Below are positions 3,800 to 21,248 of a DNA stretch of 64,000 bases, piece after piece (the first letter of the stretch is position 1; the number at the start of each line of letters is the position of its first letter). The translations under genes were made by a program, and so were the position numbers. The DNA comes from Bdellovibrionales bacterium (GTDB lineage: Bacteria > Bdellovibrionota > UBA1018 > CAIMNF01). Below the pieces are notes generated by a model. That model did not search any database. It was given only the letters and a program-made list of their open reading frames with translations, and was not told the DNA's origin. The stretch is taken from the NCBI GenBank assembly GCA_040380025.1, contig JBEIJY010000010.1, forward strand, positions 1-64,000. Reading direction: 5' to 3'.

Positions 3800-3830
3800 C
3801 AGTAGTTATGAGTAACAGTAGTTATGAATA
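3783..3830 (+). repeat. 3 x 16-bp AT-rich tandem repeat spanning the ftsW stop and murG start
   Basis: ACAGTATTTATGAATA / ACAGTAGTTATGAGTA / ACAGTAGTTATGAATA. Confidence 0.9.
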
Positions 3831-4915
3831 AGCGTCTTCTCGTCGCCGGAGGAGGTACAGGCGGTCATATTCTTGCGGGTGTTGCCATTGCCGACGAATG
3901 GAAGCGTCAGGTGCAGTCCGAATTCGGACTCATGCCTGAAGTGCTGTTCGTGGGTGCGAAGGGCGGGCTCGAAGAAACGCTCGTTCCCAAAAACGGCTAC
4001 CCCCTAAAAACCCTCGAAATCGGCGCCTTGAATCGCGTGAATGCACTGACCCGGGTTCTGACCCTGGTCAAGCTCCCGCTTGCGTTCCTGAAGTCGCTTT
4101 TGCTTTTGATTTGGTTCCGGCCGGATGCCGTGATCGGCGTCGGCGGCTATGCCTCGGGGCCCGTGGTGTTGCTCGCGCGCCTGCTTTCGCCCGTTCTGAA
4201 CATCAAGACCGCGATCATCGAGCAGAACTCCGTCGCCGGATTCACGAACCGCATGCTCGGGCGCTGGGTGCATTTTGTGTTTTGCGCCTTTCAGGCCGGA
4301 GCGGCTCCGTTCGATGCCAAAAAAGTCAGGGTCACGGGCAACCCCATCCGTGCCACCTTCAAGAGCCTGCCTCCGTCGAAGAAGGAGCCCTTCACGATGT
4401 TCGTGTTCGGGGGAAGCCAGGGCGCGATGGGAATCAACTCGCTCGTGCTCGAGAGCCTTCCGTACCTGAAAGAAAGCGGAATCCGCATCATTCACCAGAC
4501 CGGCACCAAAGATTACGAGCGGGTGAAAGCCGGCTACGATCGGGCAGGGGTGCAGGCGCGGATCGAGAAGTTCATTTACGACATGGAATCCTGCTACGCC
4601 GAGGCGAGCCTCGTGGTGTGCCGTGCGGGTGCTTCGTCGATGACCGAGCTTTCCTCGGTGGGACGCGCTCCGGTGTTCATTCCGCTCCCGACCGCGGCCG
4701 ACAATCATCAAGAAAAAAACGCCCGGATCTACGAAGCCGATCAGGCGGCCTGGGTGGTACCTCAGGGCAAGCTCACGGGCCAGGAGTTCTCGTCGCTTGT
4801 TTTGGATCTGAAATCCGACCCGGCGAAGATCTCCGGGGTCGAAGAGCGAATCCGCCGGTTTTACCGCCCCGATTCGGCCGATCTCATCGTCAAAACCTTA
4901 CGAGGCCTTGCATGA
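3824..4915 (+). CDS. murG: Undecaprenyl-PP-MurNAc-pentapeptide GlcNAc transferase
   Basis: GGGTGGH, GGYAS, EQN, TGNPIR, GGSQGA, CRAGASS, HQEKNA. Confidence 0.97.
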   Translation: MNKRLLVAGGGTGGHILAGVAIADEWKRQVQSEFGLMPEVLFVGAKGGLEETLVPKNGYPLKTLEIGALNRVNALTRVLTLVKLPLAFLKSLLLLIWFRPDAVIGVGGYASGPVVLLARLLSPVLNIKTAIIEQNSVAGFTNRMLGRWVHFVFCAFQAGAAPFDAKKVRVTGNPIRATFKSLPPSKKEPFTMFVFGGSQGAMGINSLVLESLPYLKESGIRIIHQTGTKDYERVKAGYDRAGVQARIEKFIYDMESCYAEASLVVCRAGASSMTELSSVGRAPVFIPLPTAADNHQEKNARIYEADQAAWVVPQGKLTGQEFSSLVLDLKSDPAKISGVEERIRRFYRPDSADLIVKTLRGLA

Positions 4916-6309
4916 ATCCTGTGTATCGAATTCATTTTGTCGGAATCGGAGGGATCGGCATGAGCGGAATCGCCGAGATCTTCCTTGCACGGGGAATGAC
5001 GGTGACGGGCTCGGATCTTTCTTCGGGCGAATCGACCGAGCGGCTCGTGCGCTTGGGCGCCGAGATTTTTTACGGCCACAACCGGAGCAACGTGAAGGAT
5101 GTCGACGTGGTCGTGATCAGCTCGGCCGTGGGGCCCGAGAATCCCGAGGTGCTCGAAGCGAAAGCGCGCGGGATTCCCGTGATTCCGCGGGCCGAGATGC
5201 TGGCCGAGATCATGCGCGGAAAAACCGGAATCGCCATCGCCGGCACCCACGGCAAGACCACGACGACCTCGATGACCGCGCAAATCCTGATGCGCGCGGG
5301 GCTCGATCCGACGGTGGTCGTCGGCGGACGGGTCGAAGCGATCGGAAGCAATGCGAAGACCGGATCGGGCAGGCTGGTCGTCGCCGAGGCCGACGAGAGT
5401 GACGGGAGTTTTCATTTGCTCCCCGCCACTTATGCGGTGATCACGAACATCGATACCGATCACATGGAATATTACCGCACTCGCGAGAACCTGAATGAAG
5501 CCTTTGTGCAGTTCACAAAAAAGATGCCTTTTTACGGACGCACCTGGCTCTGTTTTGAAGACCCGGGAGTGCGCGCGATTCTTCCGGCGCTCACCAAGCC
5601 CCATGCGACCTACGGATTCACGCTCGAGGCCGACCTTGCGGCCTTGAATGTCGCCACCGTTGCCGATGGCCGTCAGGAGTTCGAGCTCTGGCATCGCGCC
5701 CACCGCACCGAAAAGCACGTGCTTCTTGGTAAAATCGTTTTGAATGTGCTCGGTCTTCACAATGTGTTGAACTCGCTCGGCGCGATCGGCGTTTCGATCG
5801 ACTGCGGCGCTTCGTTCGAGGCGGTGCGGGCGGCTCTTTCGGAGTTCGCGCATGTGCGACGCCGCTTCGACGAGCGGTTTTATTCGCAAAAAACCGGCAT
5901 TCGCGTGATCGACGATTACGGGCACCATCCGACCGAGGTCCGCGCGGTGCTCGCGACCGCAAGGCAGACCGGGCACTCGCGGATCATCACGGTGTTCCAA
6001 CCGCACCGCTACAGCAGGACGCGCCTGTGCTGGGATGACTTTTTGACGTGCTTTCGCGATACCGACCAGCTCCTGATGCTTCCGATTTATCCCGCAGGCG
6101 AGGAGCCGCTTCCCGGCGTCGATTCGGGGATTCTTTCGCATGCGATCGGGGATTCGCTCGGAGGTTCGGTGTCGATCCACGGCGCCGAATCGCTCTCGGA
6201 GGCGGCCGACTGGGTGGTTTCGCACGTGCGTCCGGGCGATCTGGTTTTGACGCTCGGAGCGGGCTCGATCACGCGGCTTGCGGGCGAGCTTTCTTCGCGG
6301 CTCAGCTGA
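4912..6309 (+). CDS. murC: UDP-MurNAc--L-alanine ligase (start at ATG 4912, ATGA overlap with murG)
   Basis: HFVGIGGIGMSG, GTHGKTTTT, EADESDGSF, DDYGHHPTE, FQPHRYSR. Confidence 0.97.
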   Translation: MNPVYRIHFVGIGGIGMSGIAEIFLARGMTVTGSDLSSGESTERLVRLGAEIFYGHNRSNVKDVDVVVISSAVGPENPEVLEAKARGIPVIPRAEMLAEIMRGKTGIAIAGTHGKTTTTSMTAQILMRAGLDPTVVVGGRVEAIGSNAKTGSGRLVVAEADESDGSFHLLPATYAVITNIDTDHMEYYRTRENLNEAFVQFTKKMPFYGRTWLCFEDPGVRAILPALTKPHATYGFTLEADLAALNVATVADGRQEFELWHRAHRTEKHVLLGKIVLNVLGLHNVLNSLGAIGVSIDCGASFEAVRAALSEFAHVRRRFDERFYSQKTGIRVIDDYGHHPTEVRAVLATARQTGHSRIITVFQPHRYSRTRLCWDDFLTCFRDTDQLLMLPIYPAGEEPLPGVDSGILSHAIGDSLGGSVSIHGAESLSEAADWVVSHVRPGDLVLTLGAGSITRLAGELSSRLS

Positions 6310-17545: not shown

Positions 17546-19678
17546 CTATTCTGATTTGGGCGGGTTCGGGCGCCACTGCTGGATCTCGTTCGAGGTTCCG
17601 GGCAGGCTGTGCGCATCCACATCGAGCGGCTTCAGGAGCGGGTAGCCCGGACGGAATTCGAGATCGGGGTTTCCGTGCGTCTGGGCGCCGAAGAACTTCC
17701 CGTCCTTGAAGAACAACACCTGCGTGTGAATCGGCGACTGGATCGTGAGCGCCTGGAATCCCGCCTTGTAGAAGGTCTCGGCGTAGGCCGGGTCGAGCAT
17801 CGATTGCCCCGAGTTGTACACGCCGTTCTGCCAGCCGGCGAGGTGCGAATCGCCGAGAACCGCGCTTCCCGCCGCGGCTTTTCGTTTGCCGGGGTTCAGG
17901 GGCTTTCCGTACACACCGCCGGTGTGGCCGTGCGCGATCAGCGCATCCGAGAAGTACACCTTGTCTTTCGGACCGAGCACATGCACATGATCCGGATAGC
18001 TCACGCCGATGTCATGCACGAGGTATTCCTTCAAAAAGTTCTTCCCCGCCGTGTGGTACGACTTCATTTTGTTGTAGGCCGCGACATTCAGCGCATCATC
18101 CGCATACCCCGTGGTTGCGAACTTCCGGGCAAGGCGGTCGTAGCAGTGATTCGAGTAATTCAAGAGCCAGTGCGGGGTGTAGCCGCGGGTTTCCTTCACC
18201 GCCCGAAGGAGGTCCTTCACCAGCTCCATTCCCTTGTGCAGGTGCAGGCGGATGTCGGACTCGAGCGGATCGCGCGCAAGTGCCTCTTTTGCCGCCTGAT
18301 CGGCCTCGGTCCAGCGGCTGGCCGCATCGAAATTGAAGGTGTCGTTCGAGGCGAATCCGAGCAGATCGACGGGCTTTCCGTCGGTGCGCTTCAGGCAGGT
18401 CTTCGGATCGATGAACTGCCGGTAGAGCGCCTCGTAGTAGCGCGGATCGTAGTTGGGCGAGTGGGAGTCTCCGAGGGTGATGAAGATCGGAAGATCATAC
18501 ACCGTGCCATCGTTCGCATAGAACTTGTTCAGATCGGCGAATCCCGGCGGAAGGATCCACTCTTCGTCGCCGAACCGGAATGCGCTCGTGCGATCGAGAT
18601 ACGGAATCGCCCGGATGTGGGGTTGCGATTCGAGGCCCAGGCGAAGCTCCTCGGCAAGACCGGTTGATTTTTCGACGAGCAGGATCTGGGTCGCGTGCTC
18701 GGCGTTCTGGATCGAGCTGATGCGCGAGCCGATCGCGGAGCTCGCAAGGTAGTGGCCCGATTCAGTGATCGACCCGGTGGTGAAGATCATCGAGGGGTTT
18801 CGTGAGTCAGCGGGTTTCGGGAGTGCGAGCGAATGCCCGTGGACGAGGATCATGGTTTTTCCGGGCGAGAGCTTTCGATCCATGCCGGTTTCGGGCTTCA
18901 GGGCGCGCGGGGGAAGGGCGACTTCGTTGATCGTGAAGGTGTTGTTCGAGTGGTCGCTCAGGTAAATCTGGAACGGGCTCACGAAGCGGTACTCGGCCGG
19001 CCGGTTCAGCGACTCGGGGAGGCCCGAGCCGATTCCGTATGCCGGTGCGATCACGACGGGAAGATTCGTGGCCGGGGCGAGGTTTTTTCGCAGATTCTCG
19101 ATCGCTTGCTCGATTCCGTTCGCGAGCGGCTGGCCCGAGATGTATCCGCCCACCAAGAAGGCCTGGCTCGACCGAAGCGCGGTTCTGAGTTGGGTTTGCA
19201 CCTCGGGGCTGAATTCGCGCGTATTCACATAGCGGGCGAAGAAGCGCGCGTATTCGGGGTCGCGGGCCGCGGCGTTCGCGAGGAAATCCTCTTCGAATCC
19301 CTTGAAGACCCCCCATTCTTTATGAAACAGCCCCGAGAAGAATTCCTGCTCGGCCGGCGGCAGGCGATCGGCACCGAGTGCGAGCCGGAACTCCTCGAAG
19401 CTCGGCGGATAGCGTTTGTTCGTTTTGACCCACTCGCGGTAATCCGAGTACAGGCGGTCTTGGATTTTCTTCGCTTCTTCGGGGGTGAGGAGCGAGAGGA
19501 TCGTCTTCGCATCCATGCCCTCGATTTGCGGGATTCTGCGATCGGCGAGAATGCTCTTCACGATCGCCTTTCTTGATCCCGCCGGCAGGTTCGGAGTCAG
19601 CAGATCATCGCATTCGTTCGCAAAGGTCGAGATCGCACAAAAAAACAAGGCCGCCAGCACCACCAGAATTCGTTTCAT
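17546..19678 (-). CDS. Secreted metallophosphoesterase-fold protein resembling phage T5 A1
   Basis: Signal peptide MKRILVVLAALFFCAISTFA; TTGSIT, GFADL, LGDSH, SNH, HGHTG, GDSH, GVYNSG in A1-family order; AAGGA SD before ATG 19678. Confidence 0.7.
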   Translation of the reverse strand: MKRILVVLAALFFCAISTFANECDDLLTPNLPAGSRKAIVKSILADRRIPQIEGMDAKTILSLLTPEEAKKIQDRLYSDYREWVKTNKRYPPSFEEFRLALGADRLPPAEQEFFSGLFHKEWGVFKGFEEDFLANAAARDPEYARFFARYVNTREFSPEVQTQLRTALRSSQAFLVGGYISGQPLANGIEQAIENLRKNLAPATNLPVVIAPAYGIGSGLPESLNRPAEYRFVSPFQIYLSDHSNNTFTINEVALPPRALKPETGMDRKLSPGKTMILVHGHSLALPKPADSRNPSMIFTTGSITESGHYLASSAIGSRISSIQNAEHATQILLVEKSTGLAEELRLGLESQPHIRAIPYLDRTSAFRFGDEEWILPPGFADLNKFYANDGTVYDLPIFITLGDSHSPNYDPRYYEALYRQFIDPKTCLKRTDGKPVDLLGFASNDTFNFDAASRWTEADQAAKEALARDPLESDIRLHLHKGMELVKDLLRAVKETRGYTPHWLLNYSNHCYDRLARKFATTGYADDALNVAAYNKMKSYHTAGKNFLKEYLVHDIGVSYPDHVHVLGPKDKVYFSDALIAHGHTGGVYGKPLNPGKRKAAAGSAVLGDSHLAGWQNGVYNSGQSMLDPAYAETFYKAGFQALTIQSPIHTQVLFFKDGKFFGAQTHGNPDLEFRPGYPLLKPLDVDAHSLPGTSNEIQQWRPNPPKSE

Positions 19679-19682
19679 TTCG

Positions 19683-21035
19683 CTATTCCTTCGAAAGCAG
19701 CGCCGAGCAGGGCGCCTCACCGTTCAAAACCGCTTTCACGGTTTTTTCTGACACATCAAATGTTTGCTTCAACGCTTCGACGGCAACGCCCTCGAGGTTC
19801 TTTTTGTTGATCCGCTCGATCATGGGTTTCAGGCCCAGAATGAAGTCCGAGCGGAACACCATCACACTCGCAAGCGTTTGTGTTCCCGCCGAGAGCGCCT
19901 GCGGATTCGCGGTCTGGGCCGGATGGAGGGCCTGATACTGGCTCAGGGGCGCGGTGTTCGCGAGAATGAGCTTCAGCGGGGGCGATCCTACGCCGCCGCG
20001 CCCGTCGGTCGAGCGGATTCCTCGGATTTTGCGCTCGAAAAGATCGGCGGCCGAGGCCACGAGCGAAGGAGTGTCCTCGAAGTAGGTGAGCACATTCGGG
20101 AGCGGAAACGCCCCGTTCGTGCGATCGATCCGGCGCGAGAGCACATAGTCGATGAGGTATTCGAGAATCACGGATTTTCGTTTTGCGCTCGGGGTTTCGG
20201 CCCGCAGGTATTGACTCACCGAGGCCTCATCGTGAGTCTGAAGCGAGGGGTTTGTGAGCGCGAACACGCGATCAAATGCCGAGCCCGGTGCAAGGTGTCC
20301 CGATTCGATCAGGTGGTCGGTTGCGATCGACCATTCGATTCCCGAGTTCCCGCCCATGGTGAGCGCCATGGTCATCACCGGAAAATTCGGGTCCGACGCG
20401 AGCTTGAAGACCGGAAACATCGGGCCGAAGTTGCCCGATGCGGCCATCGCCTTCACCGCATCGACGAGCGGAGTCGATTCGGGTTGGGTGCGGAACTGCT
20501 CGAAGCTCCGGACGGGGTCGAGGTAATAATCGCGCGGATTGAGCTCGATGCCATTCGAGAGCTTGATTTTTTCGTCCTGAAACGAGTTGCCCGGAGTGCG
20601 TACGTTGTGGGGCGATCCCGGATTCGCCGATTCGTAGTGGCCGAACAGATATTTGAGCGGCGTGCGATGATAGGCGCGCACCTTCGATTCGACGCCGCGT
20701 TCCCAGTCCGAGAGCGGGATATCGATGTAGCGGGGGGTCGATTGCCGCGAGGGATCGCTTAGGGGAGAGGTGTATTCGTTCCAAAGAAACACCCGGATCG
20801 GCCGGCTGCCTTCGCCCTGGATCGGGGTCACGTTGCCGTCGATGTCGAACACGAAGATTCGCAACGGGCCCTGATAGTTCACGAGAGTATTGACGAAGCC
20901 GGGCTCGAGGGGAGCCTCTTGCGCCTCTGCATTCGGGGTCCACACAAGGTGCAGGGAGCACGAGAGTGCGAGTCCCCACACGCAAAGCGCCCCTCTTGCG
21001 CGTACAGCAAAATCAAGTCCCTTCCAAACCCTCAT
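19683..21035 (-). CDS. Secreted HAD-superfamily-like protein (start ATG 21035)
   Basis: Signal-like N-terminus ending AEA-Q; motif I FDIDGN, motif IV-like FEDT; GAGGGG SD; 4-nt gap to next gene. Confidence 0.6.
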   Translation of the reverse strand: MRVWKGLDFAVRARGALCVWGLALSCSLHLVWTPNAEAQEAPLEPGFVNTLVNYQGPLRIFVFDIDGNVTPIQGEGSRPIRVFLWNEYTSPLSDPSRQSTPRYIDIPLSDWERGVESKVRAYHRTPLKYLFGHYESANPGSPHNVRTPGNSFQDEKIKLSNGIELNPRDYYLDPVRSFEQFRTQPESTPLVDAVKAMAASGNFGPMFPVFKLASDPNFPVMTMALTMGGNSGIEWSIATDHLIESGHLAPGSAFDRVFALTNPSLQTHDEASVSQYLRAETPSAKRKSVILEYLIDYVLSRRIDRTNGAFPLPNVLTYFEDTPSLVASAADLFERKIRGIRSTDGRGGVGSPPLKLILANTAPLSQYQALHPAQTANPQALSAGTQTLASVMVFRSDFILGLKPMIERINKKNLEGVAVEALKQTFDVSEKTVKAVLNGEAPCSALLSKE

Positions 21036-21248
21036 AGAAACCCCTCTACCCTTGGTAAGACCGTTGACGTGTTCTTTTGGTGTAGTGAAGGAACTTTGAT
21101 TCCTCAAGCGGGATGTTCGATCCTATCCGGATTCTGACATAGTGAATCAATCGATTTCATTTTGTGATTGCCCCGGTCTTCTCTGGCACAAACACTCCAG
21201 CACAATCGAATGGTGCGATTCGGGGGAGTTACGCTAGTCTTTGGAATC

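Follow-up and report, generated by a model that had tools for sequence, protein, structure and literature searches.

The locus and its two genes

The gene considered here (P0001) lies at positions 17546-19678, on the minus strand, of a 64,000-nucleotide stretch of contig JBEIJY010000010.1 from a Bdellovibrionales bacterium (assembly GCA_040380025.1), which is referred to as the window. It starts with ATG, codes for a protein of 710 residues with no internal stop, and is present as a single copy in the 2.35-Mb host genome, which is 98% complete. Its product, henceforth the A1-like protein, is almost certainly a remote but clear homologue of the phage T5 protein A1, as judged from the sequence comparisons described below. 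The original prediction, made from the letters of the window, was right in regarding the gene as real and overlooked its partner: the upstream open reading frame (ORF) at 19683-21035, which ends four bases ahead of the A1-like ATG, codes for a conserved phosphatase of the HAD fold. The features of the two genes are as follows.

19619..19678, minus strand: Sec-type signal peptide, residues 1-20; cleavage after STFA by eye, supported by a hydropathy heuristic
19598..19612, minus strand: Cys tag CDDLL, residues 23-27, just past the signal peptide, read from the sequence
19169..19591, minus strand: helical N-terminal region, residues 30-170, from the model; helix-turn-helix-like in many family members
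18494..19168, minus strand: A1-specific middle domain, residues 171-395, with TTG, H328, E336, R356 and D382 common to phage A1
18626..18661, minus strand: insertion loop of about 10 residues, residues 340-351, absent from T5 A1; predicted partner docking site
17684..18493, minus strand: calcineurin-like metallophosphoesterase domain, residues 396-665, with D404, H406, D446, N510, H511, H583, D610 and H612
17549..17683, minus strand: C-terminal tail, residues 666-710, peculiar to the exported family and contributing to the predicted interface
19683..21035, minus strand: upstream partner gene P0063, 450 residues, exported HAD-fold phosphatase; start codon uncertain (TTG at 21107)
20832..20846, minus strand: partner HAD motif I, D64-x-D66-G-N, which with T226, K287 and E320-D321 makes up the four HAD motifs
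19695..19709, minus strand: partner C-terminal Cys tag CSALL, residues 443-447; Cys invariant in 35/35 aligned partners

Relationship to phage T5 A1

A full HMMER scan, which replaced word-index searches returning 5, 5 and 4 proteins, recovered 51 relatives of the A1-like protein. The family alignment, termed A2, comprises 48 full-length members, with three signal-less matches and four fragments excluded. The profile of the family matched T5 A1 with a probability of 99.96% (E 7.2e-39) over 438 columns spanning A1 residues 91-556; this alignment takes in the middle and catalytic domains of A1, with an identity of about 20% at the profile level. PHROG 1745, described as 'DNA transfer protein', is matched by 45 of the 48 family members (best E 4.3e-80) and by the A1-like protein alone (E 2.9e-5). 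Direct comparison of the latter with T5 A1 by BLASTP gave a weak match (E 8e-4 for the single pair, 88 residues), and a tblastn search with it against 50,697 phage records found no match, so that linking this protein to T5 A1 needs profiles. A typical family member matches 1125 phage records and T5 A1 itself 1135, from the same host genera. The homology to T5 A1 claimed in the original prediction is thus borne out by PHROG 1745, by the profile match and by the A1-specific middle domain, and the motifs quoted there are all found in the A1-like protein in the same order.

The AlphaFold2 model of the A1-like protein has a mean predicted local distance difference test score (pLDDT) of 88.6 and a predicted template modelling score of 0.87. 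Among viral proteins, its top three Foldseek matches are proteins of 495-608 residues (E 1.7e-34 to 1.9e-13), far ahead of short generic phosphoesterases; the first of these appears, from protein length alone, to be the A1-like protein of an Ochrobactrum phage. Hence, in the Foldseek and profile comparisons that had been suggested as a check, A1-type viral proteins rank above generic phosphoesterases, which are not the only matches. At E 0.001, a Foldseek search of the PDB returned no match. The solved folds nearest to residues 365-661 are the PolD DP1 exonuclease (Z 13.0, root-mean-square deviation 3.5, 213 aligned residues) and SbcD (Z 11.8). Pfam holds no family for either the A1-like protein or its HAD partner; PF00149 is matched by 4/48 family members, with E up to 0.01, and has no match to the A1-like protein itself. 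A sequence search of solved structures returned designed repeats and sigma factors only, with nothing meaningful among them, and a search of the ESM Atlas with the A1-like protein gave no usable match.

Domain conservation and the active site

Four close orthologues are 70-76% identical to the A1-like protein overall, with identity rising from 17-40% in residues 1-35, through 52-57% in the N-terminal helices and 73-80% in the middle domain, to 83-89% in the catalytic domain. Selection acting on an enzyme that follows a signal peptide would be expected to give such a gradient. The wider comparison rests on a core alignment of 163 rows, namely 78 exported, 78 viral and 7 signal-less, from which 28 of 191 sequences had been removed as near-duplicates. 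In this alignment H406, D446, N510 and H511 are invariant in 163/163 rows and position 404 is Asp in 162, with H583 and H612 kept in 76/78 and 77/78 of the exported rows, respectively. The A1-like protein keeps seven of the eight core residues of the pattern DxH, D, NH, H, HxH, the first His of HxH being replaced by Asp610. Under the Mre11 scheme, we take the kept residues to be six metal ligands and the catalytic His, with Asp610 standing at the seventh ligand. Asp is able to bind metal. Position 610 is His in 77/78 viral and 64/78 exported rows and Asp in 12/78 exported rows and 1/78 viral rows; the exported rows with Asp span more than one subclade, GDSH is seen in another exported clade as well as in one phage, and the nearest outer relatives keep His.

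The fold and the ordered metal-binding motifs are those of the calcineurin-like superfamily, and sequence and model together reveal a near-complete predicted two-metal phosphoesterase site. The original prediction had warned that motifs II and V are degenerate. The change in motif V is real, but the worry is mostly unfounded, since the motif II Asp is invariant across the alignment and the His-to-Asp change in motif V is recurrent. The His that precedes the motif II Asp, which is Asn in the A1-like protein, is not a canonical ligand. These two substitutions, taken together with the long stem of the host clade and the odd motif II of the partner described below, might indicate an A1-like subunit that, in the host subclade, has been altered or has lost its activity and serves the phosphatase as a scaffold or as a carrier that binds DNA. 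This is improbable given that the catalytic domain is the most conserved part of the protein, far above the N-terminal helices, that seven of the eight core residues are kept, and that GDSH recurs outside the subclade.

Two further regions set the exported proteins apart from the viral ones. The span of the insertion loop is at least 16 residues in 76/78 exported rows and at most 13 in 75/78 viral rows. The C-terminal tail has a median of 46 residues in exported members versus 2 in viral ones, and its [DN]Q-aromatic/Leu motif is present in 57/78 exported and 0/78 viral sequences. At the other end, Sigma70_r3 is matched by 15/48 family members and a profile of the viral A1 N-terminus by 36/78 exported members.

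The HAD phosphatase partner

In most loci a gene of 350-460 residues adjoins the A1-like gene, and it lies directly upstream in 38 of the 42 genomes that carry an exported A1-like gene, with a 4-base overlap in 14. The 35 aligned partners share a hydrophobic start, a DxDx[T/S/N] motif, a T/S, an invariant Lys and an acidic motif IV, with D64 kept in 34/35, D66 in 33/35, and T/S226 and K287 in 35/35. Nearly all of the 50 fold matches listed for the partner are HAD-type (Z 6.8-9.0), the top solved fold being the 3'-phosphatase of T4 polynucleotide kinase (Z 9.0, root-mean-square deviation 2.8, 132 aligned residues), with near ties within 1 Z. The motifs and the modelled fold together identify the partner as a predicted HAD-fold phosphatase. 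Sequence comparison shows the pair to be conserved in 14 families of the phylum, and there is little doubt that the two genes form an operon.

When 401 sampled genomes of the host phylum were searched with a partner profile, the 38 best-scoring genomes (E 4e-39 or better, a cut-off set afterwards) were all among the 42 A1-like carriers; 34 of the 38 had contributed to the training alignment and 4 lay outside it. Two of these four have a stop or frame shift in the partner gene and two have it split by contig ends. The partner is also upstream in three loci from a second phylum, which were outside the training alignment. Next to 99 viral A1 loci, no match to the partner profile was found below E 1. 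The partner family has no Pfam or PHROG model, and no Pfam HAD model reaches its cut-off.

Weaker HAD relatives are present in 188 further genomes; the 12 that were fetched include cytoplasmic and exported forms, with 2 fused to PLD-like phosphodiesterase domains. Identity of the partner with the T5 deoxynucleoside-5'-monophosphatase Dmp was considered and rejected, as only motif I aligns (18 columns, probability 12%). The wide presence of weaker relatives and the lack of Dmp homology beyond motif I suggest that the partner derives from a native HAD family and not from T5 Dmp.

Several observations were made on individual loci and relatives. An undescribed HAD family that lacks a Pfam model (FDFDDN ... 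ITARGH ... SDDD; L163-L174) is present in about half of the sampled genomes of the phylum. A stop or frame shift disrupts the partner gene at L011 and L013, where an assembly error is possible. At two partnerless carriers (L016:3738-4274 and L030:799-1332) the upstream gene codes for a similar exported protein of ~180 residues starting with RDLTYK. At L007 the A1-like gene is followed immediately by another, weaker member of the HAD family (3811-4971, plus strand), and a 5'-nucleotidase gene in the same orientation comes after the pair at L036:8905-10467.

A predicted complex of the two proteins

The complex was modelled with 32-row alignments for the pair of another carrier genome, G238, which scored 0.76 versus 0.00 for the best control. 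In a benchmark, the mark used for such predictions was reached by 116/157 solved and 2/215 mismatched pairs. The runs agree in at least 87% of contacts, with the pLDDT of the partner at 86 or above, and no solved complex of this kind, which the model could have remembered, was found. The predicted interface lies mainly on the loop equivalent to host residues 344-351 and on the tail, both of which are absent from T5 A1. On the basis of these models, the A1-like protein and the HAD phosphatase probably bind each other.

Export and the Cys tag

The N-terminus of the A1-like protein consists of MKR, 12 hydrophobic residues and STFA, and residues 1-35, although poorly conserved in the four close orthologues, are hydrophobic throughout. 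Export was called by a hydropathy heuristic and by eye, with a cut-off of 2.15, reduced from 2.2 for one member scoring 2.19. By these means the Sec signal peptide reported in the original prediction was recovered. A hydrophobic N-terminus is present in 46 of the 51 HMMER relatives, the other five being two internal fragments and the three weakest matches, which are without one. The viral loci are signal-negative in 97 of 99 cases; of the two flagged, one is a fragment truncated at its 5' end and the other begins at an internal start, and the complete viral homologues all lack a signal. The A1-like protein and its partner are thus very likely to be exported.

Both operon proteins bear a C-x-x-L-L sequence, the A1-like protein behind the signal peptide and the partner at its C-terminus, and a Cys within the first 75 residues is found in 76/78 exported members. 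With heuristic gene calls, the pattern C-x3-hydrophobic occurs behind the signal peptide in 22/256 exported-looking ORFs of the host genome, versus 4/256 in mid-protein, and at the C-terminus in 22/290 exported-looking proteins, versus 8. As far as can be read from these sequences, the Cys tag is a feature of the lineage, with no link peculiar to the A1-like/HAD pair. Examples at the mature N-terminus or the C-terminus lie at C1:96796-98930, C29:24702-28605 and C34:776-3214, and on host contig C1 a gene with the tag at the C-terminal end lies immediately ahead of one with the N-terminal tag, in the same order as in the A1-like operon. The tag is able to switch ends: in some exported A1-like proteins, for example P0051 (L176:1372-3759, minus strand), the N-terminal Cys is missing and a Cys is found close to the C-terminus. 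Two other roles for these residues are not supported. The protein does not appear to be a bacterial lipoprotein, as by eye Cys23 follows ANE, three residues beyond the likely cleavage, at a distance that varies among homologues. A disulfide joining the two tags finds no support, because neither Cys is named in the predicted interface, where unnamed residues are uncertain, and because the tag is genome-wide.

Phyletic spread and genomic setting

A strong match to the family (E below 1e-49) is present in 46 of the 401 sampled genomes of the host phylum, with a signal-peptide-like start in 42 and none in 4. The 42 carriers come from 15 families, and those with names belong to Bdellovibrionota (Oligoflexia, Bacteriovoracaceae and Bdellovibrionales) or to unplaced 'Deltaproteobacteria'. 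The four signal-less copies lie in mobile-looking surroundings, with an integrase and SSB, with UvrD, DnaB and TrbI, or with short unknown ORFs. In the second phylum, three of 131 genomes have exported-looking copies. The 53 genomes sampled from family f21, a family with many closed genomes, yielded two signal-less copies only and no exported A1-like gene. A further 63 weak genome matches, in frames of ~250-330 residues, fall almost exclusively on the N-terminal part and were excluded as likely sigma factors; a pattern scan of the genome collection from a narrow six-sequence alignment gave 12 loci and sets no bound on the range of the family. One exported member, at L043:6940-10461, has 1174 residues and is ~400 longer than usual.

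In the window the A1-like gene lies between a DEAD-box helicase gene and a urocanase gene. As the original prediction had it, no phage genes flank the locus, the neighbours being the helicase, an FtsJ methyltransferase and the urocanase. The GC content at third codon positions is 0.79 in the A1-like gene versus 0.73-0.82 in six neighbours, a match that suggests long residence in the genome. With native composition and with no phage genes in its flanks, the gene shows no sign of being a prophage gene.

The exported gene is present in 3 of 15 genomes of the host genus, some of which carry copies from another subclade, and the gene tree departs from host kinship. This patchy pattern is typical of defence genes and would suit a periplasmic guard that destroys incoming phage or plasmid DNA, a phage weapon turned to defence. 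We think this improbable: in 18 loci with wide flanks the nearest genes are mostly housekeeping or unknown, with no defence islands (PADLOC was not searched), and the Cys tag is common to many other exported enzymes of the host genome.

Origin of the exported family

In unrooted trees of the core columns, the exported rows form one side of a branch supported by an SH-like value of 92 (FastTree, 163 rows) and an SH-aLRT of 99 (IQ-TREE, 46 rows, with six signal-less long-branch rows excluded), which is consistent with a single origin of the exported family in the sequences compared. The original prediction had asked whether cellular versions nest within phage sequences; in these unrooted trees neither group visibly nests in the other. 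The long stem of the host clade and the copies from a different subclade in the same genus indicate that transfer or differential loss has occurred.

The two-sided tree leaves room for the view that the exported family is a sister lineage of cellular origin, or that it even gave rise to phage A1, and the greater diversity of the exported rows (mean path 3.15 versus 2.77 between the two viral groups) is in its favour. This remains a serious although less favoured account of the origin. The hosts of A1-bearing phages include Gamma- and Alphaproteobacteria, Bacteroidota and Cyanobacteria, whereas the exported proteins turned up in just two phyla, that of the host and one other; the signal peptide, the loop and the tail resemble additions; and the signal-less A1 genes in mobile-looking regions of the same phylum offer a plausible entry route. 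On the whole, the wide viral host range and the look of the added parts make transfer from phage to cell the somewhat likelier direction.

Functional implications

We propose that the operon encodes two Sec-exported enzymes that associate and degrade DNA beyond the producer's cytoplasm, an interpretation for and against which we find the case evenly balanced. Both proteins would cross out of the cytoplasm by Sec and then bind. The A1-like subunit would hydrolyse DNA, as suggested by the action of A1 in vivo and by the nearest solved folds, DP1 and SbcD/Mre11, and the HAD subunit might then strip phosphate from the products or from 3' ends, yielding nucleosides and phosphate. Export would shield the producer's own chromosome from the nuclease, and the likeliest substrate would be prey or environmental DNA. 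According to the accessible portion of a 2026 preprint, T5 A1 (T5.004) is necessary and sufficient for host DNA degradation in vivo and alone digests the E. coli chromosome (10.64898/2026.04.02.716235). We slightly favour DNA as the substrate of the A1-like protein. The pair may remain periplasmic or be released; its delivery into living prey seems rather unlikely. Still more doubtful is the fullest scenario, in which a Bdellovibrio-type ancestor took over a chromosome-destroying enzyme from T5-like phages, rendered it safe with an export signal, equipped it with a loop on which a native phosphatase docks, and used the Cys-tag-routed pair to dissolve prey chromosomes to nucleosides.

The exported protein shares with T5 A1 the aligned middle and calcineurin-like domains and seven of the eight core residues. 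It differs in being chromosomal, with neither A2 nor other phage genes in its flanks, in its signal peptide, Cys tag and longer helical N-terminus, in the 10-residue loop and 45-residue tail, in the His-to-Asp change of motif V, and in having an operon partner. The logic of a nuclease acting with a phosphatase recalls T5 A1 and Dmp, the latter having HAD motifs, and phage Dmps are among the viral fold matches of the partner (rank 4, E 6.7e-3); in T5, however, dmp is not adjacent to A1, and the partner is an analogue of Dmp rather than an orthologue. PolD DP1 and SbcD/Mre11 are cytoplasmic replication and repair subunits, unlike the exported protein, and their match covers ~200/710 residues at 11-12% identity. 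In contrast to the 3'-phosphatase of T4 polynucleotide kinase, the partner is exported, has large insertions and lacks a kinase domain. Within the same phylum, the secreted nucleases Bd0934, Bd3507, Bd1244 and Bd1934 of Bdellovibrio bacteriovorus provide a parallel for an exported candidate DNase; as far as the available part of that study goes, these exported DNases are set free in the course of predation, each of them is dispensable, and the precise identity of the enzymes digesting prey DNA in Bdellovibrio is not established (PMC7925074).

The closest parallel for the pairing itself is the PUA-Calcineurin-CE-HAD anti-phage system, in which, from the available text, a calcineurin-like enzyme is physically loaded with a HAD phosphatase in a two-step cascade and acts on dNTPs (10.64898/2026.01.15.699771). 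By analogy with this dNTP sink, the pair might be an exported phosphoesterase cascade for small molecules, such as nucleotides, dinucleotides, cyclic nucleotides or lipid phosphates. The fold matches include LpxH, YfcE and nucleotidases, and the top folds of the partner are tied within 1 Z. Nevertheless, the whole A1 architecture is kept, beyond the catalytic domain, the top folds are DP1 and SbcD, and many members keep HTH-like (helix-turn-helix-like) N-terminal domains. The anti-phage system as described is moreover cytoplasmic, gated by a PUA sensor and dNTP-acting, and the A1-like pair displays no PUA domain nor any link of that system to the A1 middle domain. A small-molecule cascade is therefore an unlikely reading of the pair, though less so than either a defensive or an inactive A1-like subunit.

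Several observations weigh against the breakdown of DNA by the exported pair. In the accessible text of the T5 preprint, DNA cleavage by A1 in vitro is undemonstrated, and A1 may act via a host nuclease (10.64898/2026.04.02.716235). LpxH, at Z 11.2, and ten other folds at Z of at least 10 follow closely on DP1 and SbcD, and the fold reveals no substrate. The host clade sits on a long stem of 1.91 changes per site, the A1-like protein matches no HTH model (neither Sigma70_r3 nor the viral A1 N-terminus profile), and motif II of its partner is TMGG instead of the usual TxRG; these features, along with Asp610, suggest that the chemistry of this protein and its partner may differ from that of the family. 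Four of the 42 carriers, all from family f23, have no partner, and of three partnerless members checked two keep the loop and one has lost it. The modelled complex, furthermore, is not that of the host pair. The idea that the module offsets purine auxotrophy was rejected family-wide, PurD being present in 39/42 carriers versus 266/359 other genomes, and no CNT nucleoside transporter domain was found in the host genome; the rarity of purine auxotrophs among carriers and the lack of this domain in the host weaken a simple feeding story. As a separate observation, the host genome (98% complete) has no PurD match, and 4/14 other genomes of the genus have one.

A literature search that did not extend to the supplements of the T5 preprint, which possibly list non-phage A1 homologues, found no description of exported A1 homologues or of an A1-like/HAD pair in the sources as available. 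The accessible portion of that preprint treats A1 as a gene found mainly in Demerecviridae and contains no mention of Bdellovibrio (10.64898/2026.04.02.716235). We regard the locus as real and conserved: it encodes an exported variant of A1 that has apparently not been described before, together with a new phosphatase partner. By the same partial account T5 A1 is toxic and hence hard to clone (10.64898/2026.04.02.716235); the exported homologues, being naturally self-safe, offer dozens of candidates for A1 biochemistry and structure and for the question of whether A1 is a DNase, which an exported A1 could settle if the proposal is true. They would also represent a new candidate enzyme class for prey-DNA digestion in uncultured Bdellovibrio-type lineages. 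Under the same proposal, a takeover protein of lytic phages would have persisted in cells as an exported enzyme that has acquired an interface for a partner, and in the fullest scenario a phage weapon for host takeover would have become a digestive enzyme of a predator.

Minor observations

Scans for promoters and terminators were at chance level (1 versus 1.1 and 6 versus 4.6, respectively). The host genome has secretin genes, with 6 matches.

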